A stretch of DNA of 42,931 nucleotides from a virus (IMGVR_UViG_2541047844_000013:1-42931), one strand, 5' to 3'. Shown: positions 1,009 through 41,242, counted from the first letter of the stretch. Notes: generated by a model not told the origin, from the letters alone. Program-made: numbers and translations.

Positions 1009-1083
1009 GTCCTCTTAGTTAAATGGATATAACGAGCCCCTCCTAAGGGCTAATTGCAGGTTCGATTCCTGCAGGGGACACCA
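1009..1083 (+). tRNA. argW: tRNA-Arg (anticodon CCU), prophage integration target
   Basis: 75-nt cloverleaf GTCCTCTTAGTTAAATGGATATAACGAGCCCCTCCTAAGGGCTAATTGCAGGTTCGATTCCTGCAGGGGACACCA; anticodon loop CUCCUAA; T-arm GGTTCGATTCC; terminal CCA. Confidence 0.9.
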
Positions 1084-1244
1084 TTTATCAGTTCGCTCCC
1101 ATCCGTACCAGTCCGCAAAATCCCCTGAATATCAAGCCTTCCGTAGATTCACAGTTCGTCATGGTTCGCGTCAGATCGTTGACAGCCGCACTCCATGACG
1201 GGTAAAAAGTGGATAAAATAATTTTACCCACCGGATTTTTACCC

Positions 1245-2402
1245 ATGCTCACCGTTAAGCAGATTGAAGCAGCAAAGCCGAAAGAAAAACCATACCGCCT
1301 TCTCGATGGTAATGGCCTGTACCTTTATGTCCCTGTGTCAGGGAAAAAGGTATGGCAGCTTCGCTACAAGATTGACGGTAAGGAGAAAATCCTGACCGTC
1401 GGGAAATATCCGCTTATGAGTTTGCAGGAGGCAAGGGATAAAGCATGGACCGCGAGGAAAGACATCTCGGTTGGCATCGATCCGGTAAAAGCGAAAAAGG
1501 CTTCGTCTAACAACAATTCCTTTAGCGCCATTTACAAGGAATGGTACGAGCACAAGAAGCAAGTATGGTCAGTAGGGTATGCGACTGAACTTGCAAAAAT
1601 GTTTGATGACGACATTTTACCTATCATCGGCGGCCTTGAAATTCAGGATATTGAGCCGATAAAACTGCTGGAAGTAATCCGCAGATTTGAAGATCGCGGT
1701 GCAATGGAGCGAGCCAACAAAGCCCGCAGAAGATGCGGAGAGGTTTTCCGTTACGCTATTGTCACTGGTAGGGCTAAATATAACCCGGCACCTGACCTTG
1801 CTGACGCCATGAAGGGATACCGCAAGAAGAACTTCCCGTTTCTCCCAGCAGACCAGATCCCTGCATTCAACAAAGCACTGGCAACATTTTCAGGAAGCAT
1901 CATATCGCTCATTGCGACCAAAGTTTTACGCTACACAGCCCTAAGAACGAAAGAGCTTCGCTCCATGCAATGGAAGAACGTCGATTTTGAAAACAGGATT
2001 ATCACTATCGACGCCAGTGTGATGAAGGGCCGCAAAATTCATGTGGTCCCGATGTCAGACCAGGTGGTTGAACTTCTCACTACGCTAAGCTCAATCACCA
2101 AACCAGTCTCAGAGTTTGTTTTTGCCGGGCGCAACGATAAGAAGAAGCCAATCTGCGAGAACGCGGTTCTACTTGTGATCAAACAAATCGGCTATGAGGG
2201 TCTGGAAAGCGGTCACGGATTCAGGCATGAATTCAGCACGATTATGAACGAGCACGAATGGCCTGCTGACGCTATTGAAGTGCAACTTGCACATGCCAAC
2301 GGCGGATCTGTGCGTGGAATTTACAACCATGCTCAGTATCTCGATAAGCGCAGAGAAATGATGCAGTGGTGGGCGGACTGGATTGATGAAAAGGTGGGCT
2401 AA
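1245..2402 (+). CDS. intS: Tyrosine integrase, P4 family (IntS-like); the upstream in-frame ATG at 1209 is less likely
   Basis: 385 aa from MLTVKQIEAAKPKEK; N-terminal arm-binding domain and C-terminal catalytic domain pattern; sits immediately 3' of argW as intS does in K-12 KplE1. Confidence 0.88.
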   Translation: MLTVKQIEAAKPKEKPYRLLDGNGLYLYVPVSGKKVWQLRYKIDGKEKILTVGKYPLMSLQEARDKAWTARKDISVGIDPVKAKKASSNNNSFSAIYKEWYEHKKQVWSVGYATELAKMFDDDILPIIGGLEIQDIEPIKLLEVIRRFEDRGAMERANKARRRCGEVFRYAIVTGRAKYNPAPDLADAMKGYRKKNFPFLPADQIPAFNKALATFSGSIISLIATKVLRYTALRTKELRSMQWKNVDFENRIITIDASVMKGRKIHVVPMSDQVVELLTTLSSITKPVSEFVFAGRNDKKKPICENAVLLVIKQIGYEGLESGHGFRHEFSTIMNEHEWPADAIEVQLAHANGGSVRGIYNHAQYLDKRREMMQWWADWIDEKVG

Positions 2403-2493
2403 CCAACGCTATATCTCAGATAGCACAAAGCCTTGCAATCCAGTGCAAAGCTTTGTGTGTCTCAGTTTTGCCTCATAGGTAACTCTGTGTTAA

Positions 2494-2793
2494 CTACGAT
2501 GCAAGAATCCATACCAATAAGCATCCGATAATTGGGAAAGAAAAATCCAACAAACTTCCCACATCCCACACGCGTGGATCAAAACCTCCCCACCACGGCA
2601 TGTTGACACGTTTCCCTTTCCCAAACTTTTCTATCCAGCGATATTCTGCCTGGGTGTGTTCACGCGCAATGAAGAACGTACAACCGGCTATCGCACCGTA
2701 AGCCCAGTTTCCGGTAAAAATACCAACCAGTACCTGAGCCGCAAAAGCGCAAAGCGAGTGAAGAAATGGAGTGACATCAATGCTCTTAATCAT
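2494..2793 (-). CDS. Small hydrophobic membrane protein, unknown function (occupies the oac/gtr lysogenic-conversion position)
   Basis: 99-aa ORF with hydrophobic N- and C-terminal segments; located between int and tailspike; no family recognised. Confidence 0.4.
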
Positions 2794-4847
2794 GAAACTT
2801 CCCCATTGGTTGAAAATATGGCTCCTCCAACTCCAAGTGTATTTCGTGTTGTGCTCAACCTAAGAGGGCTGGAGTCAGAATTAGAATATCCTGTAGCAGA
2901 AATAAAAGATCCTCCACTAATAGTCAACTGCGGAACATCGGCTATATCTGAATAAGTTCTGTCAGCAACAGTATTATTTATAGCCACATGTGATCCAAAA
3001 AAACTTCTTATTGTTTGGTTTTTAACTTTACTTCCTTCAATGGTTATCCTACTACCACAGTCAGCAATAAATCCTGAATCTGCATCCAGCGTTGCATTCA
3101 TAAAAGAAGCTTCAGATCTCTCTACATCAATCCATCTAATATCTTTTGTGGGATTTGCACCAAATACATGACAAATATTAGAGTTAAACCTTACACCATC
3201 TTGGAGGTGCATTAATTTTTTTATATCTGTACCCCATAGCCTTGGAAAATTAACAGATGCTCCTGCATGGCAATCAAATCCCAACTCAGCCCCTGAGATA
3301 TCTACAGCCTTTCCTGAAATAACAGCACCAGTGTCTGCATTAACGGCTGTTCCACAATTGCGCATATCATTACCAGCAATATCAACACAACTCGCACCAT
3401 CAATACGCACACCAAGTGCACATCCATAAAAACCTTTTTCAATATTTGGTTCAAGGACTTTACCACTTGTTTCTGCATCACTTTCTTCAACGTCATGTCG
3501 TCTTGCATCAACATATGCTGTATGAATGCAGGTTAATCCACGATATGAGCAATGTATAGTTTTATGGTCGCGTATATTAACATTTGAACCATCTCTTACA
3601 TTCCATCCTATATAACAATAGCTTGCACTTGACCCCTGAAAATCTGCTTTAACATTATAAATACAATTAACTGACGCAACCGTACTCTCTGTGCACCGTT
3701 CAAACTTGCTTACAGGCATTGATGCCTTGACATTATTTACCAGTTGCAGGGAAGAGTATCTGCTATAAGAAAAATCACATACGTAATACCCTTCTGGCAT
3801 ATATGCAGCAACACTTTCCTCATCAGGAGCACATCCGGTATGATATGCACTAATTTTTGCACCAAAGCTACCATGAATTCCAACGTAGAACTTTCGAGCA
3901 CCTGAATACGGATAGAAATTAAGTTCAGCTTTTTGAGTTACAATAAATGCACAAACATCGCTATCATCTCTATTTTCTTCAATCTGAATAGCAAATACAG
4001 GACTTTTTGCTGCATCGCAAATGTAAAATAAATATTTGTATTCGTAATACGTCCTAACAGTTTTAGTAAACAAACTGGTATCAGAGAAAACCACTGAGTC
4101 TTCTGATATTATTTTAATCCATGATAAGTCACATCCTGCTGAAATTTCTATTTGCTCATTGAGCACAAAACCGGAAAGAATTTTAATTATGCAAAAGTCA
4201 ATGCCATTTTTCCATAGTGGACGCAGTGCAACAGCCGAGTTTAGAGCATCACTAATAGATTTAAAATTACCATATTCCCCAACTGTTATTGTGAATGCAT
4301 ACCTGGAATTAAATACTGCGGCACTCTCTCCAGAGTTAATAGCTGCAGATATCATGTCATAATTTGATATAAAATCATTTGGCGTGATTATTTCTGCGTT
4401 TTTATTGTGCTGTGTTCTAAGTTTTGAATTTACATGAACACTTTTAACTGCAATACGGGAGTCGTCAACAAGTATTTCATTACCCTCTGTTGCTAACTCT
4501 TGTCTTAACTGATCCGGGTCATACTTCAGCACATTCGGAAAATTGAACTGCTGTGCACCATACGCATCATAAACAGCCATAGAATGGCCTTGCTCAGTTA
4601 CGAATTTGGCAATCTGTCCGTTATATACAGGATAACCAGCAGCGTTAATGATGATTGGTTGCGAAACAGGAACGTGAGAGCCGTCTTCGTTCTCTACATA
4701 AACCTGAATCTGGTTTTCAGGATTTACCGGGTCAGTGTCAATTTTACCGATATAAATTTTGCCATTGGCTACGGCTTTAAAAGAACGCGCCATAGTGAAG
4801 AGTTGCGAAGGCATACTCACTACAACATTGGCTGTAATGTCTGTCAT
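2790..4847 (-). CDS. Tailspike protein: P22 gp9-like N-terminal head-binding domain fused to a different receptor-binding/depolymerase domain
   Basis: First ~110 aa ([43 protein letters not shown]...VLKYDPDQ) match P22 gp9 N-terminus from memory; the remaining ~570 aa do not resemble P22 gp9. Confidence 0.88.
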
Positions 4848-4915
4848 TTAATTTGCTCCAGGTACAAGGAATCGCCGCAGCATTGCCACAGTGATGCATT
4901 ATTAATCAAACAAAG

Positions 4916-4930
4916 AGACCACTGTGGTCT
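4916..4930. promoter_or_regulatory. Candidate Mnt operator: 15-bp inverted repeat AGACCAC-T-GTGGTCT between mnt and tailspike
   Basis: Perfect 7-bp arms around a central base; resembles the P22 Omnt CCAC-GTGG core as I recall it; lies in the 146-bp divergent intergenic region. Confidence 0.5.
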
Positions 4931-4993: not shown

Positions 4994-5245
4994 ATGGGAA
5001 GAGATGACCCGCAATTTAATCTGCGGCTACCTTACGAATTAAAGGAAAAACTAAAACAGCGAGCCAAATCCAATGGCCGCTCTCTTAATTCAGAATTAGT
5101 TCAGATAGTGACTGATGCTGTATCAAAGCCATCCAAAATTTCAGGCTATCGAGACGATGCGGAACGCATCGCTGATGAGCAGTCTGAACTTGTTAAGAAG
5201 ATGGTGTTTGATACGCTGAAGGATTTGTACAAAAAACCCACCTGA
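4994..5245 (+). CDS. mnt: Mnt repressor (ribbon-helix-helix, Arc/Mnt family)
   Basis: 83 aa; MGRDDPQFNLRLPYELKEKLKQRAKSNGRSLNSELVQIV...ERIADEQSELVKKMVFDTLKDLYKK is near-identical in pattern to P22 Mnt; Gln at the position of Mnt His6. Confidence 0.85.
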   Translation: MGRDDPQFNLRLPYELKEKLKQRAKSNGRSLNSELVQIVTDAVSKPSKISGYRDDAERIADEQSELVKKMVFDTLKDLYKKPT

Positions 5246-5261: not shown

Positions 5262-5681
5262 TTAGTCTTGCTTTGTTGATGGTATAAGAGATGCGTTTGC
5301 CTCTTTTGGCTTCAAGGTATACATCCCACCATTAAAAGGATCTACAGCAAGCCAACCAATTAACCCACCAAACACAAGGTTTCCACCAATATACCAACCA
5401 TTAGCATTGGCTTTGATTGGCAGGGTAACTGGTTCGTACCCATCCTTTTCCATAGTGATCTGGTAGCTCTTTTTGCCAAAATAACTACCATCTGACTTGG
5501 CAAGAGTTACTCCTTGCGGAGTCTTACCTTGCGCAACAATCACGCCGGATTCGTCTTTTACCTTAAAGCTCGCACCGGAAGGATTGCTGTTCACTTGCAC
5601 AAGCTGTGTTTCGTCACCAACAATAGTTGCGCACCCAGATAACAATATAGCGCCAGCAACGACGCCGATAATCCTCTTCAT
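5262..5681 (-). CDS. Lipoprotein, PEGA-like domain, unknown function (accessory gene)
   Basis: Signal peptide with lipobox LLSGC; PSGA motif; 139 aa; in the immI-equivalent region between the ejection genes and the tailspike. Confidence 0.6.
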   Translation of the reverse strand: MKRIIGVVAGAILLSGCATIVGDETQLVQVNSNPSGASFKVKDESGVIVAQGKTPQGVTLAKSDGSYFGKKSYQITMEKDGYEPVTLPIKANANGWYIGGNLVFGGLIGWLAVDPFNGGMYTLKPKEANASLIPSTKQD

Positions 5682-5815
5682 ATTACTTTCCGTTTTGTTA
5701 GAATCAGAAAGATCTTAATAATAAAAAGTATTTTCGTGAAGATATTGTCGATTGAGTTAATAACTCATTTACACCCAACAGTGCCATGATGGCAAAGATA
5801 AGGAGAGTTAATCAT

Positions 5816-6301
5816 ATGAAAAAATCACTGTTAATTATCCCGCTTCTGCTGGCAGGGTGTGCAAAGGTTAGCGACTATCAGGCAAGTTGCGAACAACGCT
5901 ATCCAAAGCTTAGCGATATGGCTAATTGCCTTGATGCTAGCGTGAAGAGCGACTCACGCATGGCATCAGCACCAACACCTAAGTTGTATGTCCTTGCTGC
6001 GAAGATGCTCGGGCAAGGTGTCGATGATGGCAAGATAAGTGACGCGCAGGCAAGACTTGAGCTTCAGAATCTTTATGTTCAATTACAAAGCCAAGAACAA
6101 GCCCAACAAATAGCACAAAGCCAAGCATTCCAGCAGGCTTTATTGAATTATCAGGCTGTAAACACAATGCAAGCTATCGAGCAAAAAGCGCGCCAGCCTG
6201 TTATAACTCAACCTTACCCAACACGCGTTGACACTTACACAAACTGCAATTCAGGGTTTGGAAATACAGTCACATGCAACAGTAGCAGTAACATCAGATA
6301 A
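5816..6301 (+). CDS. Lipoprotein with Q-rich central region, unknown function (accessory gene)
   Basis: Start chosen at MKKSLLIIPLLLAGC (lipobox LAGC) with AAGGAGAG Shine-Dalgarno 8 nt upstream; divergent from the 5262-5681 gene. Confidence 0.6.
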   Translation: MKKSLLIIPLLLAGCAKVSDYQASCEQRYPKLSDMANCLDASVKSDSRMASAPTPKLYVLAAKMLGQGVDDGKISDAQARLELQNLYVQLQSQEQAQQIAQSQAFQQALLNYQAVNTMQAIEQKARQPVITQPYPTRVDTYTNCNSGFGNTVTCNSSSNIR

Positions 6302-6391: not shown

Positions 6392-8389
6392 CTATTCTGA
6401 CAACGCATCAGACTTAGCCCCCTGAGTAAGGGCGTTAATGGCCTTTTGCGCCTGCTGCATGGCTTTCTCAAACGCTGTTGATCCGCGTGGGGTGTTTGCC
6501 ATTCGGAGCATTGCATTTCTGAATGGCTCGCTCTCATAGGCGCGAGTAAGAAGTCCGTAGCTTACTGCTGCGCCAGTTGTAGCCGGGTTCATTGCCGTCC
6601 CATACCCAATTATGAACGGGATAGTTTGCTGCCCTGTGGGTGTTGTTACTGCCGCTTTTGCAGCCTGCTGCGTGGATTGCAGGTAGTTTTTTAATCCTTT
6701 CAGATAAGCAGCGTCCTGCCCCTTAAATGTGATGCCAGTCTGGTTTTGCAGGATGTTAAGCTGCCGAAGGAACTGGTCAGGGGATCCGCCAGATTTCTCC
6801 ATCGCCTTTCCAATGATGCCATTGCGCATTTGCGTCCTGCCAACACGACCAACTGAGTTATACAGAGTCTTAATTTCCGATTTGTTCTTGCTGAATAGCA
6901 TGTTGTTGACAACTTCCGGCGTCAGGTCGCCTTTCATGAGAACATTCTTCAGCCTGGTATTCTTTAGTTTCGCCGCTTCGTCAGCGTAGACGGCATTGGC
7001 CTGCTGATATTTACGGAGAGTATCGTTGCCAAGATTCTGACCAATGGCACCATTGATATCGTCGGTCATTGCCTTGTAAACGCGCTGAATGGCAGCATCG
7101 GAACGGTTTGGTAACACTGGTCGCTCACCTTTCACGTCCATTCTGAACTGGCTGCGCAGGTCGCTTAATTGCTTCAAATCCAGATTTACCGGACCATCAG
7201 GACCAGCATTGCGAACAAGCTCATCACGATATGACTGAAGTTTTGAAATTGTCTCGTTATCAGCTACCTTACCAAGCTTCTGCAGATTAGATATTTCTGT
7301 ATCAATCTGCTGAATTGCTCGCGCAGGCTGAATGTTTACTCCAGCCATAGCATTCTGAACCTGCTCCAGTCGATTACCGGCGGCACGACGAATTCCTGAT
7401 GTTTTCGCTTTAAGGCTGTCAATAACAACCGCTGGATCATACTCACCGAATTTATCGGCAAATCTCTGCACCAACTGGCTTCTCGCTTCCTGTTGCGTTG
7501 CTCTCATTCCGCTTGTGCCAGCCAGAGGGATATTTTCTGCTGTAGTCTGCGCCATTTTTCCGACGCGGGAAGTGGGTTGTAACAGGTCTGTGGTGTGCAG
7601 AGGAACTCCTTCACGCTCTGCAAATCTGATAGCCTGCTGCGCTTCTGGCGCAATAGCACCACGAACGCCACGATAAGCAGCACCTAATCCACGCCCGGCA
7701 GCGTTAATAGCAGCGCCAGCAAGTACACCAACGCCTAAATCGGTGGCGAGTGCTTCCGCATCATCTTTCGCACTATTTGCAGCAAGTGATCCAACTGCGT
7801 TTTCTGCTAGAAGGCGAGTTGCCCCCTGAGCAATTCGACCAGCAAGTGTTGGTGCCTGTACCGCCGCTCTCTCAACGCCAGCAGGAGTGAGGTAAGGCAA
7901 TGCTTCAGCAAATACCTTTCCCTCTGTCGTTTGTGGAGTCAGCGCACCTTGCTGAAGGCCAAAGTCCTGCTCTAATCCCTGCGTTGTTACTCGTGGTGCT
8001 GGTTGATATGTACCATCGCCAATACCGAGTTTACCGCCAGCCCAAGCCGCCGCGCTTGTTACAGCATCGGCAACTGATGCAGGTATGTTTGCCACGTTCA
8101 CGCCAGCCTGCACCATTCCGCGACCAGTCTCTTTTACTGCTTCGCCAAGATCAGACATAAATCCACTTTGCTGTGGTTGTTGCTGTGCTACTGGTTGCTG
8201 TGTCTCCACTGACTGCACAAATGGCAATGGATAGGCAGCATAGAAAGCTTGCTTAGCCTGCTCTGCATTTTCTCCGGCTTGCGGGGCCACGACTTCATTG
8301 AAGTATTGCTCCTGAGCCTGCGCTTTTTGTTCTGGTGCTAACGCCTGATACTGTGGAGAGGCGATAACATCTTTCCATGCTTTAGCCAT
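6392..8389 (-). CDS. Ejection (injection) protein, P22 gp16-like
   Basis: 665 aa; position and order (14-7-20-16) downstream of the tail needle as in P22; Ala/Gln-rich composition typical of ejection proteins. Confidence 0.7.
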   Translation of the reverse strand: MAKAWKDVIASPQYQALAPEQKAQAQEQYFNEVVAPQAGENAEQAKQAFYAAYPLPFVQSVETQQPVAQQQPQQSGFMSDLGEAVKETGRGMVQAGVNVANIPASVADAVTSAAAWAGGKLGIGDGTYQPAPRVTTQGLEQDFGLQQGALTPQTTEGKVFAEALPYLTPAGVERAAVQAPTLAGRIAQGATRLLAENAVGSLAANSAKDDAEALATDLGVGVLAGAAINAAGRGLGAAYRGVRGAIAPEAQQAIRFAEREGVPLHTTDLLQPTSRVGKMAQTTAENIPLAGTSGMRATQQEARSQLVQRFADKFGEYDPAVVIDSLKAKTSGIRRAAGNRLEQVQNAMAGVNIQPARAIQQIDTEISNLQKLGKVADNETISKLQSYRDELVRNAGPDGPVNLDLKQLSDLRSQFRMDVKGERPVLPNRSDAAIQRVYKAMTDDINGAIGQNLGNDTLRKYQQANAVYADEAAKLKNTRLKNVLMKGDLTPEVVNNMLFSKNKSEIKTLYNSVGRVGRTQMRNGIIGKAMEKSGGSPDQFLRQLNILQNQTGITFKGQDAAYLKGLKNYLQSTQQAAKAAVTTPTGQQTIPFIIGYGTAMNPATTGAAVSYGLLTRAYESEPFRNAMLRMANTPRGSTAFEKAMQQAQKAINALTQGAKSDALSE

Positions 8390-9777
8390 TAATCACCCCA
8401 TAGTGAAGAAAAGTTACTGCTGGCTGCTGGCTGTGATACCTGCGCAGGTTGAGATTGCTGCCGCTGAGATTTACCAACATTAACGTTATATTGTTGGTTG
8501 TAATTGTTGGTGTATTCCTGAATCTCACGAATCGACTGCTGCATAGCCTCCGGGCTTGAATAGTCAACCTGCGGCATCCCCTGAAAATACATCTTCGCTT
8601 CTGCAACGGTGTTAATACCACTGGCACCCATGTCCCTTGCTGCCGCCACACCCTGATTCTGCATTCTGCCCTGAATACGTTGTGCTGAGTTATATAACTG
8701 GCGCTGCTCTTTTCCCGTTAATCGGCTGCGAACATCAGCACCAATTGCTGGATTACCTGCACCGCCTGTCATTCCTGTCATGAAATCGAGAGCAGAAGCG
8801 TCTGCATTTGCGATCGCGTCGATATCCTTCTTCATGGCATAGTTTTGTGCTGATGCAGACGATGTTGCCGGCGCAGCGATTGAACTGGCAGGAACGCGAA
8901 CCATATTCCCCTCGTTGTCGATGCCTTCGTAGAACGCATTAGCCCCAGCGCCGTGAAGCTTCCCGCCTACCGTTACAGTTCTGCCATCTGATAACTGAAC
9001 TGTACGCTCATCATTCCCAGCAGTTCCTCTTGTTGACGATCGCTGCATTGCCAAATCCTGACCGCGTCGTGCAGTAGAAGCAGATAAATCCTGACCGCGC
9101 ATCGTGATGTTCTGACCACGCGCTGTTAGTGCTTCTCCAGCCTGATTGCTGCGGATTGTCTCTGCCAGCCTGCCTCGGTCAATTTCACGACCAGCCATCT
9201 TGTCCTGAACATTGAAGTAATCAATCGGACCAAGCGCAGCCATCCCAAGGTGATCAACAAACTCACCAAATCCTGAAGGATTCTGCTGATACATCTGAGC
9301 AACGCTGTTAGGGTCAACACCGACGCGAGTCAGTTCCTTGGCGTTGTTTTGCAGCCATGATTGCATTGCTTCTGGAGACGATGACGCAAGGCGTGCGCCA
9401 GCCGCTAAGGTGCCGATAGAATTGCGCTGGTCTTCATCAATGAATCCCATGCCTTTACGAACAGATTCAATCTGGTCTGGATATTGAGTAGCCAACTGAC
9501 GCAAAGCACCGCGATCACCAGACGCATAAGCATTAGCGTATGCCTGCTGAAATTCTTTCTGCCGCTGAGCCTGCTTTTCCTGCTGAAAAACACCCGCAAT
9601 ACCAGAAAGACCTTGCAAAGCTGTCAGCCCAACATTGTTAGCGCCTGAACGCTCAATATCATTGTTCTGCCTGATAAGCTGAAGCGTGTTGCCGATGTCA
9701 TTTACGCTCGGAGCGTTTGAGTTGACACCACCGATACCAGCCAACAATCCGCCATTTGTTCCTTGCCAAGTAGCCAT
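8389..9777 (-). CDS. Ejection protein, P22 gp20-like
   Basis: 462 aa (P22 gp20 about 471 aa); conserved gene order. Confidence 0.7.
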
Positions 9778-32847: not shown

Positions 32848-33153
32848 ATGACAGTAGTCATTACATATCTGGCTGACGATAACGCCAGAAATCGCCGCAG
32901 AGCACGCAGACAGGCTCAACGTGAGCAGGCAATGCAAGAACAGCGACTGGCGCGAAAAATTGCGCTAAAGCTCTCTGGTTGCGTCAGAGCAGACAAAGCA
33001 GCATCACTCGGAAGCCTTCTCTGCAAGAAGGCAGATGAAGTCGAGCGTAAACAGAACCGTATTTACTACCGCAAGCCACGCTGTGAAATGGGTGTGACTT
33101 GCTCAGGCCGCCAGAAGCAACGCGGAAAATCAATTCCAGCTTATTACGATTGA
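32848..33153 (+). CDS. N: Antitermination protein N
   Basis: 101 aa; arginine-rich motif NARNRRRARRQAQREQ near the N-terminus; first gene after nutL; GGAGG Shine-Dalgarno. Confidence 0.75.
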   Translation: MTVVITYLADDNARNRRRARRQAQREQAMQEQRLARKIALKLSGCVRADKAASLGSLLCKKADEVERKQNRIYYRKPRCEMGVTCSGRQKQRGKSIPAYYD

Positions 33154-33161: not shown

Positions 33162-33299
33162 ATGCTCAAGAAAGTCAAACGCCGACTTTACAAAGAAGGT
33201 AGATATTCATGCCAGTTGCCAAAATGCGACACGACAAAATGGAGTGTCGATGATTGGTGTAACTGGATAGATAGATACGGAACTTGGTGGGATAAATAA
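33162..33299 (+). CDS. Small Cys/Trp-rich hypothetical protein (45 aa)
   Basis: Hand translation MLKKVKRRLYKEGRYSCQLPKCDTTKWSVDDWCNWIDRYGTWWDK; GAGGTGAG Shine-Dalgarno 5 nt upstream. Confidence 0.4.
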   Translation: MLKKVKRRLYKEGRYSCQLPKCDTTKWSVDDWCNWIDRYGTWWDK

Positions 33300-33423
33300 C
33301 AGGTAACTTAAGCGGATTTATTTTCGCAGCAAACCACTTATTTGAGGTGAGATATGGAAGAAGAATTTGAAGAGTTCGAAGAGCATCCCCAGGATGTGAT
33401 GGAACAATACCAGGACTATCCTT

Positions 33424-33624
33424 ATGACTACGACTATTGATAAAAATCAATGGTGTGGACAATTCAAGCGATGCAATGGATGCAAGCTGCAATCGGAATG
33501 CATGGTTAAGCCTGAAGAAATGTTTCCTGTAATGGAAGATGGGAAATATGTCGATAAATGGGCAATACGAACGACGGCAATGATTGCCAGAGAACTTGGT
33601 AAACAGAATAACAAGGCTGCCTGA
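33424..33624 (+). CDS. Small Cys-rich hypothetical protein (66 aa)
   Basis: Track ORF; CxxxxxxCxxC pattern; early-left operon orientation. Confidence 0.4.
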   Translation: MTTTIDKNQWCGQFKRCNGCKLQSECMVKPEEMFPVMEDGKYVDKWAIRTTAMIARELGKQNNKAA

Positions 33625-33663
33625 TGGTGGCCTTTATTTTTGGCACTAACAACAGAGGCTAAC

Positions 33664-33954
33664 ATGGAATTTAAAGGTACTGAAGGTAAGTGGGAAATAA
33701 TAATGGATGGCGATGAGATTAAAATCATCCAGGCAGACTCACTTGAAAATGGCGCAGGCTGGCGTTCGTATATTGCAATCTGTGAGGAAGTTCAATGTAT
33801 TGAAGATGCCAATCTAATAGCGGCAGCACCTGACCTTTTAAATGCCCTGAAAGCGATGCTAAACAAGGCATACAAGCAAAACTGGAATGACCATTATCCT
33901 GATGAAGTATCGAAAGCACAGTCAGCAATTAGCAAAGCTCTTGGGGAAGAATGA
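33664..33954 (+). CDS. Hypothetical early protein
   Basis: Start set at MEFKGTEGKW with AGAGG Shine-Dalgarno; the track ORF begins 24 nt upstream. Confidence 0.45.
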   Translation: MEFKGTEGKWEIIMDGDEIKIIQADSLENGAGWRSYIAICEEVQCIEDANLIAAAPDLLNALKAMLNKAYKQNWNDHYPDEVSKAQSAISKALGEE

Positions 33955-34112
33955 TGAATAAGAAATACATTGTTGAAGTTATAGAGCGAGAAACGAAAGA
34001 AGTAATTAAACATTTCGAATTTGATAATTATAGAAAAGCTGACCGCGTCGAAGAAGGATTGTTGCGACAAAGTAATCTCGAAAAATTTGATGTTGTCATG
34101 CGATGCGAATAA
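33951..34112 (+). CDS. Hypothetical small protein (53 aa)
   Basis: Hand translation MMNKKYIVEVIERETKEVIKHFEFDNYRKADRVEEGLLRQSNLEKFDVVMRCE; start overlaps the upstream stop (ATGATGA). Confidence 0.4.
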   Translation: MMNKKYIVEVIERETKEVIKHFEFDNYRKADRVEEGLLRQSNLEKFDVVMRCE

Positions 34113-34205
34113 GCGCCTATAGCAGATTTACGAGTCTGCTATGTGAGCAATGTCGCTCGTAACTAAACAGGAGCCGACTTGTTCTGATTATTGGAAATCT
34201 TCTTT

Positions 34206-34231
34206 GCCCTCCAGTGTGAGGGCGATTTTTT
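34206..34231 (+). terminator. Internal rho-independent terminator within the pL operon (tL-like)
   Basis: Hairpin GCCCTC-CAGTGT-GAGGGC followed by GATTTTTT. Confidence 0.6.
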
Positions 34232-34251
34232 ATCTATGAGGATATGAATAG

Positions 34252-34620
34252 ATGTCAAACATCAAAAAATACATCATTGATTACGACTGGAAAGCATCAA
34301 TAGAAATTGAAATCGACCATGACGTAATGACAGAGGAAAAACTTCACCAGATTAATAATTTCTGGTCAGACTCTAAATACCGACTCAATAAACACGGCGC
34401 TGTATTAAATGCTGTATTAATCATGCTGGCGCAACATGCTCTGCTTATAGCAATTTCGAAAGACTTAAATGCATATGGTGTTGTTTGTGAGTTCGACTGG
34501 GATGATGGAAATGGTCAGGAAGGATGGCCTCCAATGGATGGTAGCGAAGGAATAAGAATTACCGATATCGACACATCAGGAATATTTGATTCAGATGATA
34601 TGACTATCAAAGCCGCCTGA
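34252..34620 (+). CDS. Hypothetical early protein
   Basis: 122-aa ORF with GAGGA Shine-Dalgarno; no family recognised. Confidence 0.5.
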   Translation: MSNIKKYIIDYDWKASIEIEIDHDVMTEEKLHQINNFWSDSKYRLNKHGAVLNAVLIMLAQHALLIAISKDLNAYGVVCEFDWDDGNGQEGWPPMDGSEGIRITDIDTSGIFDSDDMTIKAA

Positions 34621-34654
34621 GAGCGTTTTTAAAGAATACAACGAAGGAGGATAT

Positions 34655-35623
34655 ATGAGTGAAGTAACAGATTTAGTTGTTATTGAAAAAGCAAATGCAA
34701 TGACTGTATTTCAGTCTGCCGACCAGATTGAAGAAATCCTTCAAAAGGTTGAACGTGAAGTTATGTCCTTTGTGCCTGATATCACAACGGCAAAGGGCAG
34801 AAAGGAGATCGCTTCTCTGGCGTATAAAGTTGCGCAGACGAAAACATATCTCGATGGTCTTGGCAAAGACCTTGTTGCTGAACTGAAGGAAATTCCAAAG
34901 CTAATTGATGCCAACCGCAAGACAGTGCGTGATCGCCTTGATGAACTGAAAGTCAAGGCACGCCAGCCTCTTACTGATTATGAGGAGGAGCAGTCACGGA
35001 TTAAAGCCGAAGAAGAAGCTAAGGCAGCAGCTGAAGCTCTCGCAAAGCAAATTGAGTCTGACCATGAAATAGCTATTTTGATGGATCGCGAATTTGACCG
35101 CAAAAGAGAAGAGGTAAGACTCAAAGCGGAGCAGGAAAAGCGAGAGCATGAAGAACGCTTAAAAAGAGAAGCTGAAGAGAAAGCCAGAGCTGAAGCCGAA
35201 GCAAAGGCAAAAGCCGAAATTGAAGCAGCAGCAAGGCGAGAAGCAGAAGCTAAGGCCGCAGCGGAACGTGCAGAGCGTGAACGCATTGAAGCCGAGCAAC
35301 GAGCACAGCGCGAAGCAAAAGAGGCAGCAGAACGAGCTGAAAGAGAAAAGCAGGCGGCAATTGAAGCAGAACGCCGAAAAGCACAGGAGGAGGCTGAACG
35401 AATCCGGCGCGAGGCTGAAGCAAAAGAGCAAGCCAGAATAGCAGAAGAAAAAAGAATCAAGGACGAAGAAGAGCGTAGAGCAAAGGATAAAGCTCACCGG
35501 AAAGAAGTAAATAACAAAATACTTGCTGACCTTATCAAGGTTGGCGCATCAGAAGATGTTGCTAAAAATATCATAACAGCCATCGTAAAAGGCGAAGTAT
35601 TCGCAACAAAAATAACCTACTAA
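34655..35623 (+). CDS. Coiled-coil protein with a long Ala/Glu/Lys/Arg-rich low-complexity central region
   Basis: 322 aa; AGGAGG Shine-Dalgarno; about 150 aa of EAKA/AERAERE-type repeats between globular N- and C-terminal segments. Confidence 0.6.
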   Translation: MSEVTDLVVIEKANAMTVFQSADQIEEILQKVEREVMSFVPDITTAKGRKEIASLAYKVAQTKTYLDGLGKDLVAELKEIPKLIDANRKTVRDRLDELKVKARQPLTDYEEEQSRIKAEEEAKAAAEALAKQIESDHEIAILMDREFDRKREEVRLKAEQEKREHEERLKREAEEKARAEAEAKAKAEIEAAARREAEAKAAAERAERERIEAEQRAQREAKEAAERAEREKQAAIEAERRKAQEEAERIRREAEAKEQARIAEEKRIKDEEERRAKDKAHRKEVNNKILADLIKVGASEDVAKNIITAIVKGEVFATKITY

Positions 35624-35647
35624 TAAAACCAACATAAGGAACCACCC

Positions 35648-35794
35648 ATGATTTACGCAATCGCGGGAGGCGCTCGCATGGGTGCCTTCCAATTAAATGA
35701 ATCTTTACTTGAACGAATCACCCGTAAATTACGTGACGGATGGAAACGCCTTATCGACATACTTAATCAGCCAGGAGTCCCCAAAAATGGATAA
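35648..35794 (+). CDS. cIII: CIII (FtsH/HflB inhibitor)
   Basis: Hand translation MIYAIAGGARMGAFQLNESLLERITRKLRDGWKRLIDILNQPGVPKNG; core matches lambda CIII (ESLLERITRKLRDGWKRLIDILNQPGVPKNG); below the track cutoff. Confidence 0.75.
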   Translation: MIYAIAGGARMGAFQLNESLLERITRKLRDGWKRLIDILNQPGVPKNG

Positions 35795-35900
35795 AACACT
35801 TATGGCTATCCAGACTAAATTCACTATCGCCGCTTTTATTGGCGATGAAAAGATGTTTCGTGAGGCCGTCGAAGCCTACAGAAAATGGAGGTCAAAATGA
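35787..35900 (+). CDS. kil: Kil-like host cell-division inhibitor
   Basis: MDKTLMAIQTKFTIAAFIGDEKMFREAVEAYRKW... resembles the lambda Kil N-terminus from memory; AGGAG Shine-Dalgarno; start overlaps the cIII stop. Confidence 0.6.
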   Translation: MDKTLMAIQTKFTIAAFIGDEKMFREAVEAYRKWRSK

Positions 35901-36085
35901 TTCCGGTAGAACTGGCGAAAACTCCAGAGTTAAGTCGATTAAAAAGAGAATATCACATTGCTGAGGCTCGTTACTGGCGTAAAGCGGGAGATAAATCAAA
36001 GAAACAACTTTGCTTATGGCAGGCACAAAGAGAGCGCATGAATGAGCGTGAGTTTCTTTCCTCCCCATCCGAATTACCATTCTGA
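35897..36085 (+). CDS. Hypothetical small protein
   Basis: Start at MIPVELAK (ATGA overlap with the kil stop; GGAGG Shine-Dalgarno). Confidence 0.4.
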   Translation: MIPVELAKTPELSRLKREYHIAEARYWRKAGDKSKKQLCLWQAQRERMNEREFLSSPSELPF

Positions 36086-36093
36086 GGCAAATT

Positions 36094-36774
36094 ATGGGAA
36101 CTGCGACATTAATACTCGGTGAATCTGGCACCGGAAAATCAACCAGCATGAGAAATATCAATCCAGAGGAAGCAATACTTATAAAACCAATAGGCAAGCC
36201 GCTTCCATTTAAATCAAAAGACTGGCTGGCATGGGATGCCAGAGCAAAAAAAGGAACCGTAGTTACCACTGACAAATGGGACGTAATAGTTGCCGTAATT
36301 AAGCGTGCTCACGAATACGGGAAAAGAATCGTTATTGTTGATGACTTCCAGTATGTGATGAGCAATGAGTTTATGCGCCGCTCAGAAGAAAAATCGTTTG
36401 ATAAATTCACTGAGATAGGCCGCCACGCATGGGAGGTGATTAAGGCTGCACAGGATGCACCTGATGACCTGAGAGTCTATTTTCTTGCGCACACCGAAGA
36501 AACCCCTATGGGGCGTGTGAAAATGAAGACTATCGGCAAAATGCTGGACGAGAAAATCACTGTCGAAGGCATGTTTACTATAGTTCTTCGCACCCTTACC
36601 CGCGATGACCAGTTCTTTTTCACCACGAAAAACAACGGTGCAGACACTGTTAAATCCCCAATGGGAATGTTTGATTCTAATGAGATTGATAACGATCTCT
36701 CTTTCGTCGATGCCACTGTTTGTGATTACTACGGCATCAATAATGTTCATCAAATTAAGGAAAACGCCGCATGA
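36094..36774 (+). CDS. Sak4-type RecA-like core ATPase (single-strand annealing recombinase)
   Basis: 226 aa; Walker A GESGTGKST at the N-terminus and a Walker B-like IVIVDD; size and position typical of Sak4. Confidence 0.7.
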   Translation: MGTATLILGESGTGKSTSMRNINPEEAILIKPIGKPLPFKSKDWLAWDARAKKGTVVTTDKWDVIVAVIKRAHEYGKRIVIVDDFQYVMSNEFMRRSEEKSFDKFTEIGRHAWEVIKAAQDAPDDLRVYFLAHTEETPMGRVKMKTIGKMLDEKITVEGMFTIVLRTLTRDDQFFFTTKNNGADTVKSPMGMFDSNEIDNDLSFVDATVCDYYGINNVHQIKENAA

Positions 36775-37358
36775 GCAACGTGATTTTTACTTATAACGAA
36801 GAAGCAGCACTGACCGCAGGGCAAGGTGGTTTTATTAACGAAACTGGTGCTCATATCATTACCATTACTGAAGCAGAACTAAAGCAATCAGAAAAAGGAG
36901 CCAAATTTATTGAGTTTTCTGGCGAATCTGACGACGGACGTAAAATCCAATATCTTAGCGTCTGTGTTCAGAAAAATGACGGAACGGAAAACAAATTTGG
37001 CGCAAATGTCGTTCACGCCATGATGGGGTGTGCCGGGATTGGACAATTAACGCAACATATGGTTTCCGCCAGTAAATTTGTTGCTCCTGAGTTTCATGGA
37101 AAGAAAATCGGGTTAGTGCTCCAGAAAGTATTAACCACAAACAAAAAGACTGGCGCAGACAGCTACCAGATGGAAATACGCATCCCGTTTATTGCACAAA
37201 CAGGTCAAACCCTTAAAGAAAAGGCGGAAGGCAAGCAACCAGAAACTATCGCCAACATGGTTGCCAGCCTCAAAGATAAAGACAATCGCTCTAAAAACGT
37301 AAGCCAGAATCATGCAGATGATTATGGTTACAGCCAGAACGATTACCCTCCTTTCTGA
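36771..37358 (+). CDS. Sak4-associated single-stranded DNA-binding protein (DUF669-like)
   Basis: 195 aa; start overlaps the Sak4 stop; acidic/aromatic C-terminal tail ending DDYGYSQNDYPPF, reminiscent of SSB tails. Confidence 0.55.
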   Translation: MSNVIFTYNEEAALTAGQGGFINETGAHIITITEAELKQSEKGAKFIEFSGESDDGRKIQYLSVCVQKNDGTENKFGANVVHAMMGCAGIGQLTQHMVSASKFVAPEFHGKKIGLVLQKVLTTNKKTGADSYQMEIRIPFIAQTGQTLKEKAEGKQPETIANMVASLKDKDNRSKNVSQNHADDYGYSQNDYPPF

Positions 37359-37381
37359 TTATTGAAAATAAGGCTCCCATT

Positions 37382-37678
37382 ATGCCAGCGCCTCTGTATG
37401 GTGCGGATGACCCGCGCCGCTGTTCCGGCAATTCCGTATCGGAGGTGCTGGATAAATTCAGGAAAAACTACGACCGGATAATGTCGCTACCGCAGGAAAC
37501 AAAAGAGGAAAAGGAATTTCGCCACTGCGTATGGCTTGCAGAGAAAGAAGAACGCGAGCGAATTTACCAGACATCAATCCGACCATTCCGCAAAGCCACA
37601 TATACCCACTTCCCTGAATATATCGACCCGCGCCTGCGTAATTACCGCTCACGCTATGGCGCTATCAGTAATGACTGA
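37382..37678 (+). CDS. Hypothetical early protein
   Basis: 98-aa track ORF; no family recognised. Confidence 0.45.
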
Positions 37679-37688
37679 GGAATTTACC

Positions 37689-37856
37689 ATGAGAGGACTT
37701 GCATACAATCCCGGCATTCTTCCGGCAGAAATGATTATTCGCCAACGCGTAAAGCCAATGCCATCGAGAGAGGAATTGCTTAAGAGAAATTCTTTTCCGT
37801 CAGTGAATGAAAACAAATATCTGAATGCGATGTGGCGCAAAGGAGGCAGCCAGTGA
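37689..37856 (+). CDS. Hypothetical small protein (55 aa)
   Basis: Start at MRGLAYNPG with GAGGA Shine-Dalgarno; the longer track ORF overlaps the upstream gene. Confidence 0.4.
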
Positions 37857-38497
37857 CTAACCGTTTTTACATGATGTGCTCGCGTGAAACTGTGGGCAAT
37901 AACGCTTCATTCCATTGCCATAACGGCAATGGTTACAGTTCTGATATCGATCGCGCTCATGTTTACACGCTGGAAGAAGCCCAAAAAGCCTGGAATTGTG
38001 GGCGAGATATCGATCAGCCTGTTTGCGCTGATAGCGTGGATGCAATGGCAGTGTGGCATGTTGATTGCCAGTACATCCCTACAGAAAGCCTGATTGAGTC
38101 AGATTGCACTGCGTATGTGGCCTACAAAAAAGGTAGCTGGAACGGCAACGATGTTTACTGGCTTCAACACGGTGGATTGCCAACAGATGACTTCAGTAAA
38201 GCGACCATCTTTAGCGTCGCCAACAAAAACGAACCAGGAATAGTTTGGTTGCCATTTTCCATTGCTGATGCAGCAAAGCGCAGGACGTTCAATATCAATA
38301 ACTTTAACCGCAGAACAATGGTTCAGGGCGCAGGTTTGGTCATGCCTGACTGGTTGAAAGAGCAGAACAGAAGAAAGAAGTCGCGAAGCGGGAAGGTGCG
38401 TTGGAATTGTCCGCATTGCGGAAAAATCTCCTGGCAGTACAGCCCATATGATTTTGAAGGCTGTAGTGATTACAACTGTGAAGGATGGCGAGAATGA
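37853..38497 (+). CDS. Hypothetical protein with C-terminal zinc-ribbon (CPHCG...C..C)
   Basis: GTG start at 37853 preceded by AGGAGG; alternative starts at 37832 or 37871. Confidence 0.5.
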
Positions 38498-39042
38498 CAA
38501 TTGACTATCAGGCACTGCGTGATGCGGCAGTTGCAGTAGAAACAGAACCTATGCATCAAAATTTTGTGGCGTTTCGTATGGCGTTCACGCCATCGGTGGC
38601 ACTGGCACTACTGGATGAAATTAAGCGGCTGGAAGACACAAATATTGATGCTATGTGCCGTATTGCAGAGCTTGAGACTAATCTCGCGGCGCTGGTGGCA
38701 GAGAACGCCGGACTGAAACACGCAATGGCCGTAACTCTTGAGCATGTGTCGGTCACGGATGCAGGGCAGGCTGGTGTTGCTGCAATGATTATCAACGATG
38801 CCCTACACCACAGCGAAACTCCAGCTACCGATGCTTTCCTGTCTGAAGTGCGGGCGCAGGGGGTGGATGCTGCTATAGAAGCTGCAAAAAATCTGGTGGC
38901 CCAAGAATATGAGTATAAGGATTTCAAAGCGGCGCAGAGTGATTGCTGTATGCACCCTGGTTCAGACCTGGTAGGGAAGGTTGAAATGACTGAGTGGTTA
39001 GTTGACTTTGCTGCCCAGCTTCGCAAAGGAGGCAACCAGTGA
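38485..39042 (+). CDS. Ead/Ea22-like protein (paralogue 1)
   Basis: 185 aa; N-terminus [14 protein letters not shown]... is paralogous to the next gene; coiled-coil. Confidence 0.55.
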   Translation: MARMTIDYQALRDAAVAVETEPMHQNFVAFRMAFTPSVALALLDEIKRLEDTNIDAMCRIAELETNLAALVAENAGLKHAMAVTLEHVSVTDAGQAGVAAMIINDALHHSETPATDAFLSEVRAQGVDAAIEAAKNLVAQEYEYKDFKAAQSDCCMHPGSDLVGKVEMTEWLVDFAAQLRKGGNQ

Positions 39043-39725
39043 GCGAAATTAATTACCAGGCACTGCGTGAGGCGGCGGAACGTGCAATTCCAGCAATGGA
39101 ACGCCTGTTAATGTTGCCAGCTGATGATGATTTGTTAAGTGAACAGGAACTTAAAGATTACGGTGTGGATATTGATGCGCTCAACGCCTTCAAATTTCTG
39201 ACCGGACCAGAAACCGTGCTGGCACTACTGGATGAACGGGAAAGAAACCAGCAATACATCAAACTCCGCGACCAGGAGAACGAGGATATTGCGCTTACTG
39301 TTGGGAGGCTGCGCGTTGAGCTAGAAGGCAAAGACAGCAAAATGGCCAATCTTACCGCCGAACGCGATGCTCTTCGTGAAGGTGAGATGGGCGACGCTAG
39401 GCATAGCAACACACGGGCCGCAGCTGATATCTACTTCCAACTGGTCGAGGAGTGCGAAATTCCTGCTGGCGGATCTCTGGTCGAGTACGTTGACGATATG
39501 CGCGAGAAGCTGGAAGCCGCAGAGAAGCGCATTGCAGAGTTAGAAAGTGGTTCTCAGGCACAAAAGTTAGTTGAAGCAATCATTGTTGCGATAGAAAACG
39601 AACAGGAAAGGCTTTTTGATGAAGATTACCTAATGGATTCGAAAGAATGCATTGACGTAATTCGTGAAGAAGTAAAGCGATGGAATGATTCCCGTGCCGC
39701 TGGCATTCGCATCAAAGGAGAGTGA
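39039..39725 (+). CDS. Ead/Ea22-like protein (paralogue 2)
   Basis: 228 aa; N-terminus MSEINYQALREAAERA... and a shared LALLDE motif. Confidence 0.55.
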   Translation: MSEINYQALREAAERAIPAMERLLMLPADDDLLSEQELKDYGVDIDALNAFKFLTGPETVLALLDERERNQQYIKLRDQENEDIALTVGRLRVELEGKDSKMANLTAERDALREGEMGDARHSNTRAAADIYFQLVEECEIPAGGSLVEYVDDMREKLEAAEKRIAELESGSQAQKLVEAIIVAIENEQERLFDEDYLMDSKECIDVIREEVKRWNDSRAAGIRIKGE

Positions 39726-39726
39726 T

Positions 39727-39990
39727 ATGGCAACTTTAACAAAAAAAGAACGGGCATGGTTGAACGAATTACAGGACGTTCTTGATCGCTGCCCATCACC
39801 GAAAAAAATTGGTTTTTACACCATTGGCGATAAAAGCATTTACCTGTATGACCTGCGCCGCATGGATGAAATCATGGAGGCTCTTGATAATCGTTCGTCG
39901 ATGGATTGGTGTGTTGCTGTCCATGATATGAATGCAGGGTTTGATGAAAAGATTTTGTTCCCCTCATCAGTTGAAAGCACTGCGGGTTAA
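39727..39990 (+). CDS. Hypothetical small protein
   Basis: Start at MATLTKKERAWL with GGAG Shine-Dalgarno; the track ORF extends upstream in frame. Confidence 0.45.
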   Translation: MATLTKKERAWLNELQDVLDRCPSPKKIGFYTIGDKSIYLYDLRRMDEIMEALDNRSSMDWCVAVHDMNAGFDEKILFPSSVESTAG

Positions 39991-40000
39991 GGAGTAACAC

Positions 40001-40546
40001 ATGACCACTATTACCAAAGAACGTATTGAATTGTTCATTAAAAATCCGCTTGAAAACGGGCTTACTCGTGGCGAACAAATGGAACTGGCACGAATTGCAC
40101 TGGCATCACTGGGAGCAGAACCTGTAAGCCAAACTTACAACTTGCCACAAACGCACTTTGAACAGGTTGCTGACCTTTACGAAATGCAATTTGATGACGG
40201 ACGCACTTGTGCCTTTCATACTGATGCGCAAAAGGCTGCGCAATGGCTTCGGGCATGCGACGGAAACAGGGTTCAGGAATACGTGAAACTGGAGCGACTG
40301 CAGAACGCGATATCGGGCAACTCTCCGGTAATTCCGGATGGCTGGATAAGCTGTAGTGAGCGAATGCCGGAAAAGAATAAGAACGTGCTTATTTCGGTGA
40401 ATTTCGATAGCTCTCTGGTTGAGCCGCTAATATGCTCCGCACGCTATACCGGAAGTACATTCCGGCGTGGAGATGTAACGGTTAAGCCAGGTAATGGTAT
40501 TGAGCAAGCAACTCACTGGATGCTGCTACCAGAGCCTCCACTTTGA
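40001..40546 (+). CDS. DUF551-domain phage protein
   Basis: 181 aa; C-terminal ...SERMPE...ATHWMLLPEPP pattern typical of DUF551. Confidence 0.55.
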   Translation: MTTITKERIELFIKNPLENGLTRGEQMELARIALASLGAEPVSQTYNLPQTHFEQVADLYEMQFDDGRTCAFHTDAQKAAQWLRACDGNRVQEYVKLERLQNAISGNSPVIPDGWISCSERMPEKNKNVLISVNFDSSLVEPLICSARYTGSTFRRGDVTVKPGNGIEQATHWMLLPEPPL

Positions 40547-40642
40547 AAGTGAAGCTTATACATATCTTTTACATCAGCAATCTATTGTTAATCTCTAATC
40601 AATGTTACGTTGTCATCTCACTCATGCTTTGGAGGTAGTGAT

Positions 40643-40822
40643 ATGTCTTGTCCAAAATGCGGTTCTGGAAATATTGCAAAAGAAAAAACAATGCGTGGAT
40701 GGTCTGGTGATTATGTGTGCTGCGATTGCGGATACAACGACTCTAAAGACGCATTTGGAGAGCGTGGTAAAAACGAGTTTGTTAAAATTAATAAAGAACG
40801 CGAAGGCAACGAAAAAAGCTAA
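40643..40822 (+). CDS. Small zinc-ribbon protein
   Basis: Start at MSCPKCGSGN with GGAGG Shine-Dalgarno; CxxC...CxxC; last gene of the early-left operon. Confidence 0.45.
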   Translation: MSCPKCGSGNIAKEKTMRGWSGDYVCCDCGYNDSKDAFGERGKNEFVKINKEREGNEKS

Positions 40823-40887
40823 TTTATTTATTCATATATTAAAACAATGTAACCAATATTCGAATTGAAGAACTGAAAGAACACCAA

Positions 40888-40910
40888 GCCGCCTGATGGC
40901 GGTTTTTTAT
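40888..40910 (+). terminator. Rho-independent terminator ending the early-left operon
   Basis: Hairpin GCCGCC-TGAT-GGCGG followed by TTTTTTATT. Confidence 0.7.
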
Positions 40911-40953
40911 TGCCTGATTTGCAGGTTCGATTCCCTATTCGGAGATAGCACTC

Positions 40954-41154
40954 ATGCAACACGAACTACAACCTGATTCACTGGTTGATTTGAAATTCAT
41001 CATGGCCGATACTGGCTTCGGTAAAACCTTCATCTACGACCGAATTAAGTCCGGAGACCTGCCTAAAGCCAAAGTTATCCACGGGCGAGCAAGATGGTTA
41101 TATCGTGACCATTGTGAATTCAAAAATAAGCTCTTAAGCCGCGCCAATGGGTAA
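40954..41154 (+). CDS. torI: Excisionase / recombination directionality factor, TorI (AlpA-family winged helix)
   Basis: 66 aa; MQHELQPDSLVDLKFIMADTGFGKTFIYDRIKSGDLPKAKVIHGRARWLYRDHCEF...; recognised as the KplE1 excisionase TorI; sits just inside attR, opposite end from int. Confidence 0.75.
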   Translation: MQHELQPDSLVDLKFIMADTGFGKTFIYDRIKSGDLPKAKVIHGRARWLYRDHCEFKNKLLSRANG

Positions 41155-41227
41155 AATAGCGGGTAAAATATTTCTCACATCTAAAAAACATCATTCCAAT
41201 CAATCCCCTGCCGCGTCAAGTAGATGT

Positions 41228-41242
41228 CTGCAGGGGACACCA
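41228..41242. repeat. attR core, direct repeat of the argW 3' end (CTGCAGGGGACACCA)
   Basis: Exact 15-bp match to 1069-1083; flanks diverge on both sides. Confidence 0.75.

Follow-up and report, generated by a model that had tools for sequence, protein, structure and literature searches.

An apparently complete Lederbergvirus prophage in argW with an Sf6-type virion gene cluster and a KplE1/HK620-type recombination module

The viral DNA stretch IMGVR_UViG_2541047844_000013:1-42931 (42,931 nucleotides, hereafter the window) contains an element at positions 1084-41242 which, judged from its sequence, is a temperate podovirus prophage. It is assigned to Lederbergvirus, carries an Sf6-type virion gene cluster and would have entered argW by means of a KplE1/HK620-type recombination module (probability roughly 0.9). 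The nearest phage records are all Lederbergvirus. The element is an ordinary, apparently complete member of the well-known Sf6/HK620 (P22-like) group, and no new type of system is apparent. Identity tables were compiled using tblastn against eight references, including Sf6, P22, lambda, K-12, HK620, Sf101, JEP4 and Gally, and PHROG profile scans covered 60 ORFs. Beyond correct annotation the significance is small, as this is another mosaic in a well-studied group at a well-studied hotspot. The gains are exact prophage boundaries with an empty-site reference for the design of attP/attB PCRs, and the correction of the tempting idea that the element is a full-length KplE1. An HNH insertion, lipoprotein genes and a split argW homology are small leads.

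Insertion site and recombination module

The window opens in yfdC (ORF 1-933; 99% amino acid (aa) identity to K-12 YfdC). The element is delimited by the following features:

1009-1083, plus strand: argW, tRNA-Arg(CCT), called by ARAGORN and Rfam
1069-1083, no strand: attL core CTGCAGGGGACACCA, exact repeat, same as the KplE1/Sf6/HK620 core
1084-1244, plus strand: attL P' arm with the intS promoter and GGGTAAAA-type repeats
1245-2402, plus strand: intS, 385-aa tyrosine integrase (Pfam Arm-DNA-bind_3, Phage_int_M and Phage_integrase)
40954-41154, plus strand: torI, excisionase (recombination directionality factor, RDF), 66 aa, 100% aa identity to K-12 TorI, Sf6 gp18 and HK620 HkaC
41155-41227, plus strand: attR P arm with tandem GGGTAAAAT repeats
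41228-41242, no strand: attR core CTGCAGGGGACACCA, exact repeat

The 15-mer CTGCAGGGGACACCA is present in exactly two copies in the window, with 0 expected according to 100 shuffles. Since the last 15 nt of argW are the attL core, the tRNA gene is complete in the lysogen. The base after the core is T at attL and G at attR, and the repeat measures 15 bp here versus 16 bp in K-12; at attR the sixteenth base is not the same, as the adjoining bacterial DNA is the csc locus and not dsdC. The empty site was reconstructed by joining window positions 600-1083 to 41243-41742, with one copy of the repeat retained, and this query was searched against complete E. coli genomes. The resulting argW-cscB site was found with 100% identity as a single uninterrupted piece in many E. 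coli chromosomes, and at least 80% of the query was covered in 1412 genomes. On such empty sites, PGAP annotates yfdC, a tRNA-Arg, a DUF4942 remnant and an oligosaccharide MFS transporter (cscB). Because the flanks rejoin as an intact empty site, 1084-41242 is a precise insertion of 40,159 bp with exact ends; the corresponding range for HK620, Sf6 and P22 is 38.3-41.7 kb. A prophage at argW between 15-bp direct repeats, as proposed in the earlier note, is borne out by the tRNA call, the repeats and the empty-site match.

The right flank (41243-42931) is the sucrose (csc) locus, at a place where K-12 has dsdC. The cscB gene (41684-42931, minus strand) has 99.5% aa identity to the copy in the vB_EcoP-683R2 record. 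A short DUF4942 remnant between attR and cscB is annotated in other genomes.

The recombination module was assigned to the KplE1/HK620 type on finding the 3'-end core of argW duplicated, intS at attL reading away from the tRNA, torI at attR, and IntS and TorI orthologues. IntS is 98% identical to K-12 IntS, 98% to Sf6 Int and 97% to HK620 Int. The integrase and excisionase had been named as the intS/torI pair, which is confirmed by these identities, by the perfect match to K-12 TorI and by the positions of both genes. In an alignment with K-12, Sf6 and HK620, the R, HxxR, H and Y positions of IntS, which from general knowledge of the family we take to be the tyrosine-recombinase residues, are invariant. 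The intS promoter at 1179-1208 (-35 TTGACA at 1179-1184, 18 nt, -10 TAAAAA) is identical to that of K-12. The attL arm has three mismatches compared to K-12, and at all three positions the Sf6 base is found. Between torI and the attR core lie 73 bp. By analogy, excision from these att sites would be performed by TorI, IntS and IHF.

An intS promoter overlapping attL was defined by Panis et al. (PMC2951348), according to whom transcription of int and of the RDF gene is uncoupled. The KplE1 recombination module is shared by HK620, Sf6, CUS-3 and many argW prophages (Panis et al. 2007-2012; PMC2951348, PMC3509656), and TorI is 100% identical to HkaC and Sf6 P18 (Panis et al. 2012, PMC3509656). 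A further phage of the P22-like group that uses argW is Kapi1, whose int and xis lie at opposite ends of the prophage (Pick et al. 2022, PMC8787464). Full-length phages using a KplE1-type module have already been published (PMC2951348, PMC3509656, PMC8787464), and a "prointegrase IntS" and a "response regulator inhibitor TorI" are already named in the RefSeq entries for Sf6 and HK620.

Module composition and nearest relatives

The earlier description of the element as a mosaic was upheld. Each module has a different nearest relative (Sf6, HK620, lambda, Sf101, JEP4 or Gally), which on the sequence evidence is the usual lambdoid mosaicism. The virion genes are arranged as follows:

2494-2793, minus strand: 99-aa protein with two hydrophobic segments (phrog_1443; 100% to JEP4 gp21, same position)
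2790-4847, minus strand: tailspike, 685 aa (phrog_5662 over the full length; 97% aa identity to the JEP4 tailspike)
6392-8389, minus strand: gp16, ejection protein, 99% aa identity to Sf6
8389-9777, minus strand: gp20, ejection protein
9787-10482, minus strand: gp7, ejection protein
10485-10940, minus strand: gp14
10940-11641, minus strand: tail needle gp26, 233 aa
11641-13059, minus strand: gp10, 99% aa identity to Sf6
13068-13550, minus strand: gp4, 100% aa identity to Sf6
13525-13710, minus strand: 61-aa ORF
13753-15024, minus strand: coat, 99.8% aa identity to Sf6
15036-15920, minus strand: scaffold
15934-18060, minus strand: portal, 99% aa identity to Sf6
18063-19475, minus strand: large terminase subunit TerL, 99.8% aa identity to Sf6
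19472-19897, minus strand: small terminase subunit TerS, 88% aa identity

The late operon is colinear on the minus strand in the order TerS-TerL-portal-scaffold-coat-gp4-gp10-gp26-gp14-gp7-gp20-gp16, followed by the tailspike, and all genes are full length. The genes of 10485-13710 have 93-100% aa identity to HK620 or Sf6, and the ejection proteins gp16, gp20 and gp7 have 96-99% to Sf6 or vB_EcoP-683R2. The virion genes had been called P22/Sf6-like, of which the Sf6-like part stands (99-100% aa identity for coat, portal and TerL). P22-type virion genes were rejected, as coat, TerL and TerS are undetectable in P22 by tblastn and the portal is only 32% identical (range for portal, scaffold and gp4, 32-37%). 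P22 shares the gene order of the late operon and has homologous gp10, gp14, gp7, gp20, gp26, mnt, abc2 and tailspike head-binding domain. It differs further by adjacent int-xis genes at a thrW-type attP, by gtrABC, sieA and arc/ant, and by another immunity region. Homologues of P22 arc, ant, sieA and sieB are absent from the window; Arc matched the mnt-like gene alone (44%). By analogy, short-tailed virions would be formed which package DNA by headful using an Sf6-type terminase.

The head-binding domain of the tailspike is of the P22 gp9 type (PF09008, residues 1-113, E = 8.7e-65). The receptor-binding part is low in GC (0.38) and matches JEP4 and HZ41 with 97-98%. The 99-aa ORF 2494-2793 and the tailspike gene have 4 nt in common at the tailspike stop codon, an arrangement identical in JEP4.

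Replication genes are encoded at 27175-30514:

27175-29067, minus strand: primase-helicase, 630 aa, Toprim_2 and DnaB_C/AAA_25 domains, 99% aa identity to Sf101 gp45
29052-29546, minus strand: NUMOD4/HNH_3 endonuclease gene (PF07463 and PF13392 above cutoffs)
29654-30514, minus strand: replication initiator with an N-terminal Phage_rep_O domain, 99.7% aa identity to Sf101 gp44

The module had been described as non-lambda. This is true for P of lambda, which is replaced by a Toprim/DnaB-like primase-helicase, and not for the initiator, which by its Phage_rep_O domain stays O-like (49% identity to lambda O over 55% of its length). The same pattern is found in Sf101 and mEp043. The HNH gene is a 490-bp insertion between initiator and primase-helicase when compared to Sf101, mEp043 and ES18, all of which are without it. 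According to the alignment (junction 29040-29070), the insertion begins exactly at the primase-helicase ATG used in Sf101, and the 3' end of the HNH gene gives a new primase-helicase start, MEAPLSPSELSDLLW versus MTPSELSDLLW. None of the 31 phage records sharing the flanks has the insert at this junction; it is present in five of the 292 E. coli genomes having the junction. The closest phage proteins to the HNH ORF are at most 49% identical. With NUMOD4 and HNH domains in a small stand-alone ORF and a site-precise presence or absence, the gene looks like a free-standing homing endonuclease.

Immunity genes and the early-left operon follow:

30688-30966, minus strand: cII
31075-31275, minus strand: cro
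31376-32092, plus strand: cI
32111-32479, plus strand: HkaS-like membrane protein, 122 aa, 97% aa identity to HK620 HkaS
32848-33153, plus strand: N
33162-40868, plus strand: early-left operon with ral, an ea10 homologue, a 322-aa protein similar to Sf6 gp33, cIII, kil, a Sak4-like annealing protein, a single-strand binding protein (SSB), abc2 and ea-type accessory genes
35648-35815, plus strand: cIII

The immunity genes had been named lambda-like, which is correct for their layout and not for their sequence. Lambda immunity was rejected, since aa identity of cI and cro to lambda is 43% and 63%, respectively, versus 99.6% and 98.5% to HK620. In nucleotides, the immunity region is 98% identical to HK620. 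A scan of this region for promoter and terminator consensus sequences gave no more sites than were found in shuffles, save an oop-like terminator at 30690-30722. In lysogens, the gene of the HkaS-like protein is probably transcribed together with that of the repressor.

The HkaS homologue has three hydrophobic segments, is located 18 nt 3' of cI and has no match to a defence family. N looks hybrid: residues 1-64 match HK620 N with 95% identity, and residues 65-101 match Sf6 N with 84%. The 88-aa ORF 40602-40868 (plus strand), located where the early-left operon ends, probably represents an eaG-like gene read in the wrong frame; its frame is doubted because HK620 (hkaD) and P22 annotate a 59-aa eaG in another frame of the homologous DNA. 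Ten unassigned ORFs gave no known defence system: PADLOC returned nothing meaningful, NCBIfam matches were far below cutoff and no Pfam match was above cutoff.

Lysis genes, tRNAs, late antiterminator and nin region are located between the terminase and replication genes:

19977-21094, minus strand: three short ORFs, conserved and situated between TerS and the lysis genes, with Sf6 gp67, gp66 and gp65 as homologues
21082-21519, minus strand: Rz
21138-21320, minus strand: Rz1, embedded
21516-21992, minus strand: endolysin R
21976-22299, minus strand: holin S
22542-22697, minus strand: tRNA-Thr(TGT) and tRNA-Asn(GTT), in the interval from Q to the holin gene, an arrangement shared with Sf6 and phage 21
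22761-23279, minus strand: late antiterminator Q, phage 21/Sf6 type, 99% aa identity to Sf6
23270-27174, minus strand: nin region with ninI, ninH, ninG, ninF, ninE, a PAPS-reductase-like gene (ninC type), a Dam-type methyltransferase gene, ninB, a 68-aa membrane ORF and ninA

For lysis and nin genes, the label lambda-like proved right: aa identity to lambda is 99% for S and 97% for R, and ninE-ninI are 91-100% identical. ninG is intact, and in Sf6 it is interrupted by IS911. Q gave no match to lambda Q or P22 Q. At Rfam gathering thresholds, three tRNAs and no other non-coding RNA family were detected in the window.

Compared as a whole, Sf6 resembles the element in site, core, Int (98%), Xis/TorI (100%), virion cluster, Q, the tRNA-Asn/Thr pair, lysis genes, cII, ral, abc2 and gp33. 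It differs in the tailspike receptor domain, the gp20 C-terminus and the tail needle, which here is of the P22/HK620 type with 233 aa. Furthermore, Sf6 has oac, which is not present in this prophage, and is without the mnt and the two lipoprotein genes found here; its immunity is 434-like versus HK620-type, its replication uses a DnaB-like helicase versus a primase-helicase, and its recombination Erf versus Sak4 and SSB. HK620 is similar in TorI (100%), Int (97%), immunity region, Sf6-type head genes, tail needle and the Sak4, SSB and abc2 block (99%). It differs in its tailspike, a lambda-type Q, a nin region with roi and rusA, O plus a DnaB-like P, and the ea genes.

Intactness, proposed life cycle and alternative explanations

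All essential genes are full length compared to PHROG profiles or to genes of isolated phages, and the short genes cIII, Rz1 and ninA were located as well. No IS element, transposase, frameshift or premature stop was found between the repeats. Except for TerS, the essential proteins are 93-100% identical to isolated-phage genes. The claim that all modules are present and uninterrupted survived re-annotation, in which the essential genes were checked for frameshifts and premature stops and none was detected.

The following life cycle is proposed from homology to HK620, Sf6, lambda and KplE1. In the lysogen, the HK620-type cI, a LexA-family repressor, would keep PL and PR off and probably also drives the downstream membrane protein. 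SOS-induced cleavage of cI would derepress PL and PR, and leftward transcription antiterminated by N would extend as far as torI, where the early-left operon ends. TorI, IntS expressed from the promoter overlapping attL, and host IHF would recombine attL with attR, whereupon argW would be restored and a circle with attP between torI and intS released. This circle would be replicated by the O-like initiator and the primase-helicase. The phage-21-type Q would switch on the late operon with the two tRNAs, S/R/Rz/Rz1 and the packaging and head genes. The Sf6-type terminase would package by headful, the lambda-type S/R/Rz/Rz1 would lyse the cell, and the tailspike would set the O-antigen specificity.

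By analogy to its relatives, the prophage is probably inducible as it stands. Several points weigh against an active prophage. While its anatomy can be read directly, activity is inferred, and intact reading frames are no proof of inducibility. The exact mosaic is present in none of 5,426 complete E. coli genomes and none of 50,697 phage records, and in E. coli genomes coverage reached at most 83% for the left half and 58% for the right half. TerS is just 88% identical to the nearest compared relative. The attR P arm has substitutions at 41191, 41212 and 41215 versus K-12, Sf6 and HK620, one of which is shared with another E. coli prophage, while the other two are private in that they are absent from that one other prophage compared. 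IntS has six private aa changes, and the HNH insertion remodels the primase-helicase, altering its first residues and its translation start context. The arm substitutions, the IntS changes, the remodeled start and the lack of an identical prophage known to be viable would fit a prophage which is sequence-intact but dead or only partly active through point changes, i.e., one that excises without replicating or does not excise. This explanation is possible, but unlikely. The essential proteins are full length with the high identities given above, the presumed catalytic positions of IntS are unchanged, and all three arm substitutions fall outside the GGGTAAAAT repeats, which are unchanged as well. 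Concerning the primase-helicase, a GAGGA ribosome-binding site is located 5' of the new start, and five E. coli genomes retain the junction including the HNH gene at 99.3-99.9% identity, with the primase-helicase annotated as intact.

In the earlier note, the element had also been regarded as the full-length form of KplE1, or as the undeleted ancestor of the KplE1/CPS-53 remnant of K-12. Both occupy the same site and share core and intS promoter over attL; IntS and TorI are nearly or fully identical, and attL-intS and torI-attR have 96-97% nucleotide identity (att arms about 97%). However, the K-12 KplE1 region (L001) aligns by blastn at two stretches alone, L001 302-2780 with window 1-2476 and L001 11261-11599 with window 40904-41242, so that homology covers yfdC-argW-attL-intS and torI-attR, ends 74 bp past intS and resumes 50 bp before torI. 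The 15 interior KplE1 proteins (yfdG through ypdJ) gave 0 tblastn matches in the window at E ≤ 1e-3. KplE1 is a 10.2-kb remnant without repressor or virion genes, and its interior (gtr-type and tail-fibre-assembly genes, yfdM-T) has no homologue in this podovirus. Because only the recombination module is common to both, and such modules are known to be shared by unrelated phage bodies, the full-length-KplE1 interpretation was rejected and an ancestor of this kind is considered very unlikely. Still less credible is a composition of the 40-kb region from two or more tandem argW elements, or from a prophage plus a satellite. A second argW-derived 16-mer at 40919-40934 and the nature of argW as a hypervariable island locus could be taken as hints. 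Nevertheless, the core repeats form just one pair, integrase and excisionase are each encoded once, the modules make up one colinear series in which no function is duplicated, and the flanks rejoin as a clean empty site; moreover, Sf6 and HK620, which are single phage genomes, have the 16-mer within the conserved module. A single Lederbergvirus prophage in argW is the favored explanation.

Lipoprotein genes, split argW homology and prevalence

Between tailspike and gp16, three genes are located:

4994-5245, plus strand: mnt-like repressor, Arc and Repressor_Mnt domains, 76% to P22 Mnt and 100% to phage Gally Mnt
5262-5681, minus strand: predicted lipoprotein, 139 aa, signal peptide, lipobox LSGC (phrog_6823)
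5786-6301, plus strand: predicted lipoprotein, signal peptide, lipobox LAGC, likely start M11 at 5816

The lipoprotein pair beside mnt takes the place of P22 sieA/immI, ORF 5786-6301 having the position and orientation of P22 sieA, and the block of mnt and lipoprotein genes has 100% aa identity to Gally. Neither lipoprotein has a Pfam, PADLOC or NCBIfam family above cutoff. Both are possible superinfection-exclusion morons.

Upstream of torI, a further part of argW was recognized:

40919-40934, plus strand: second exact copy of a 16-nt segment of the argW T-arm, matching 1054-1069

The 16-mer, TTGCAGGTTCGATTCC, sits 19 nt 5' of torI and is kept in K-12 KplE1, Sf6 and HK620. It overlaps the promoter called pI (cII-activated integration promoter) in the HK620 record. 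Taken together, the 16-mer and the 15-bp core account for the final 30 nt of argW, but with 293 bp between them in the phage. No mention of the split homology or of the 16-mer upstream of torI was found in the searchable literature. The split could record the origin of the unusual xis-attP-int layout, in that a cassette of torI plus P arm could have been inserted or rearranged inside a longer ancestral tRNA-homologous attP. Such readings, with the split argW recording this origin or the lipoprotein pair being an undescribed superinfection-exclusion system, are considered rather improbable.

The recombination module is widespread. torI-attR is found in 1407 of the 5426 complete E. coli genomes, i.e., in about a quarter. 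Relatives at the argW-csc site have already been deposited as phages, for instance vB_EcoP-683R2, the record of which includes cscRAKB.

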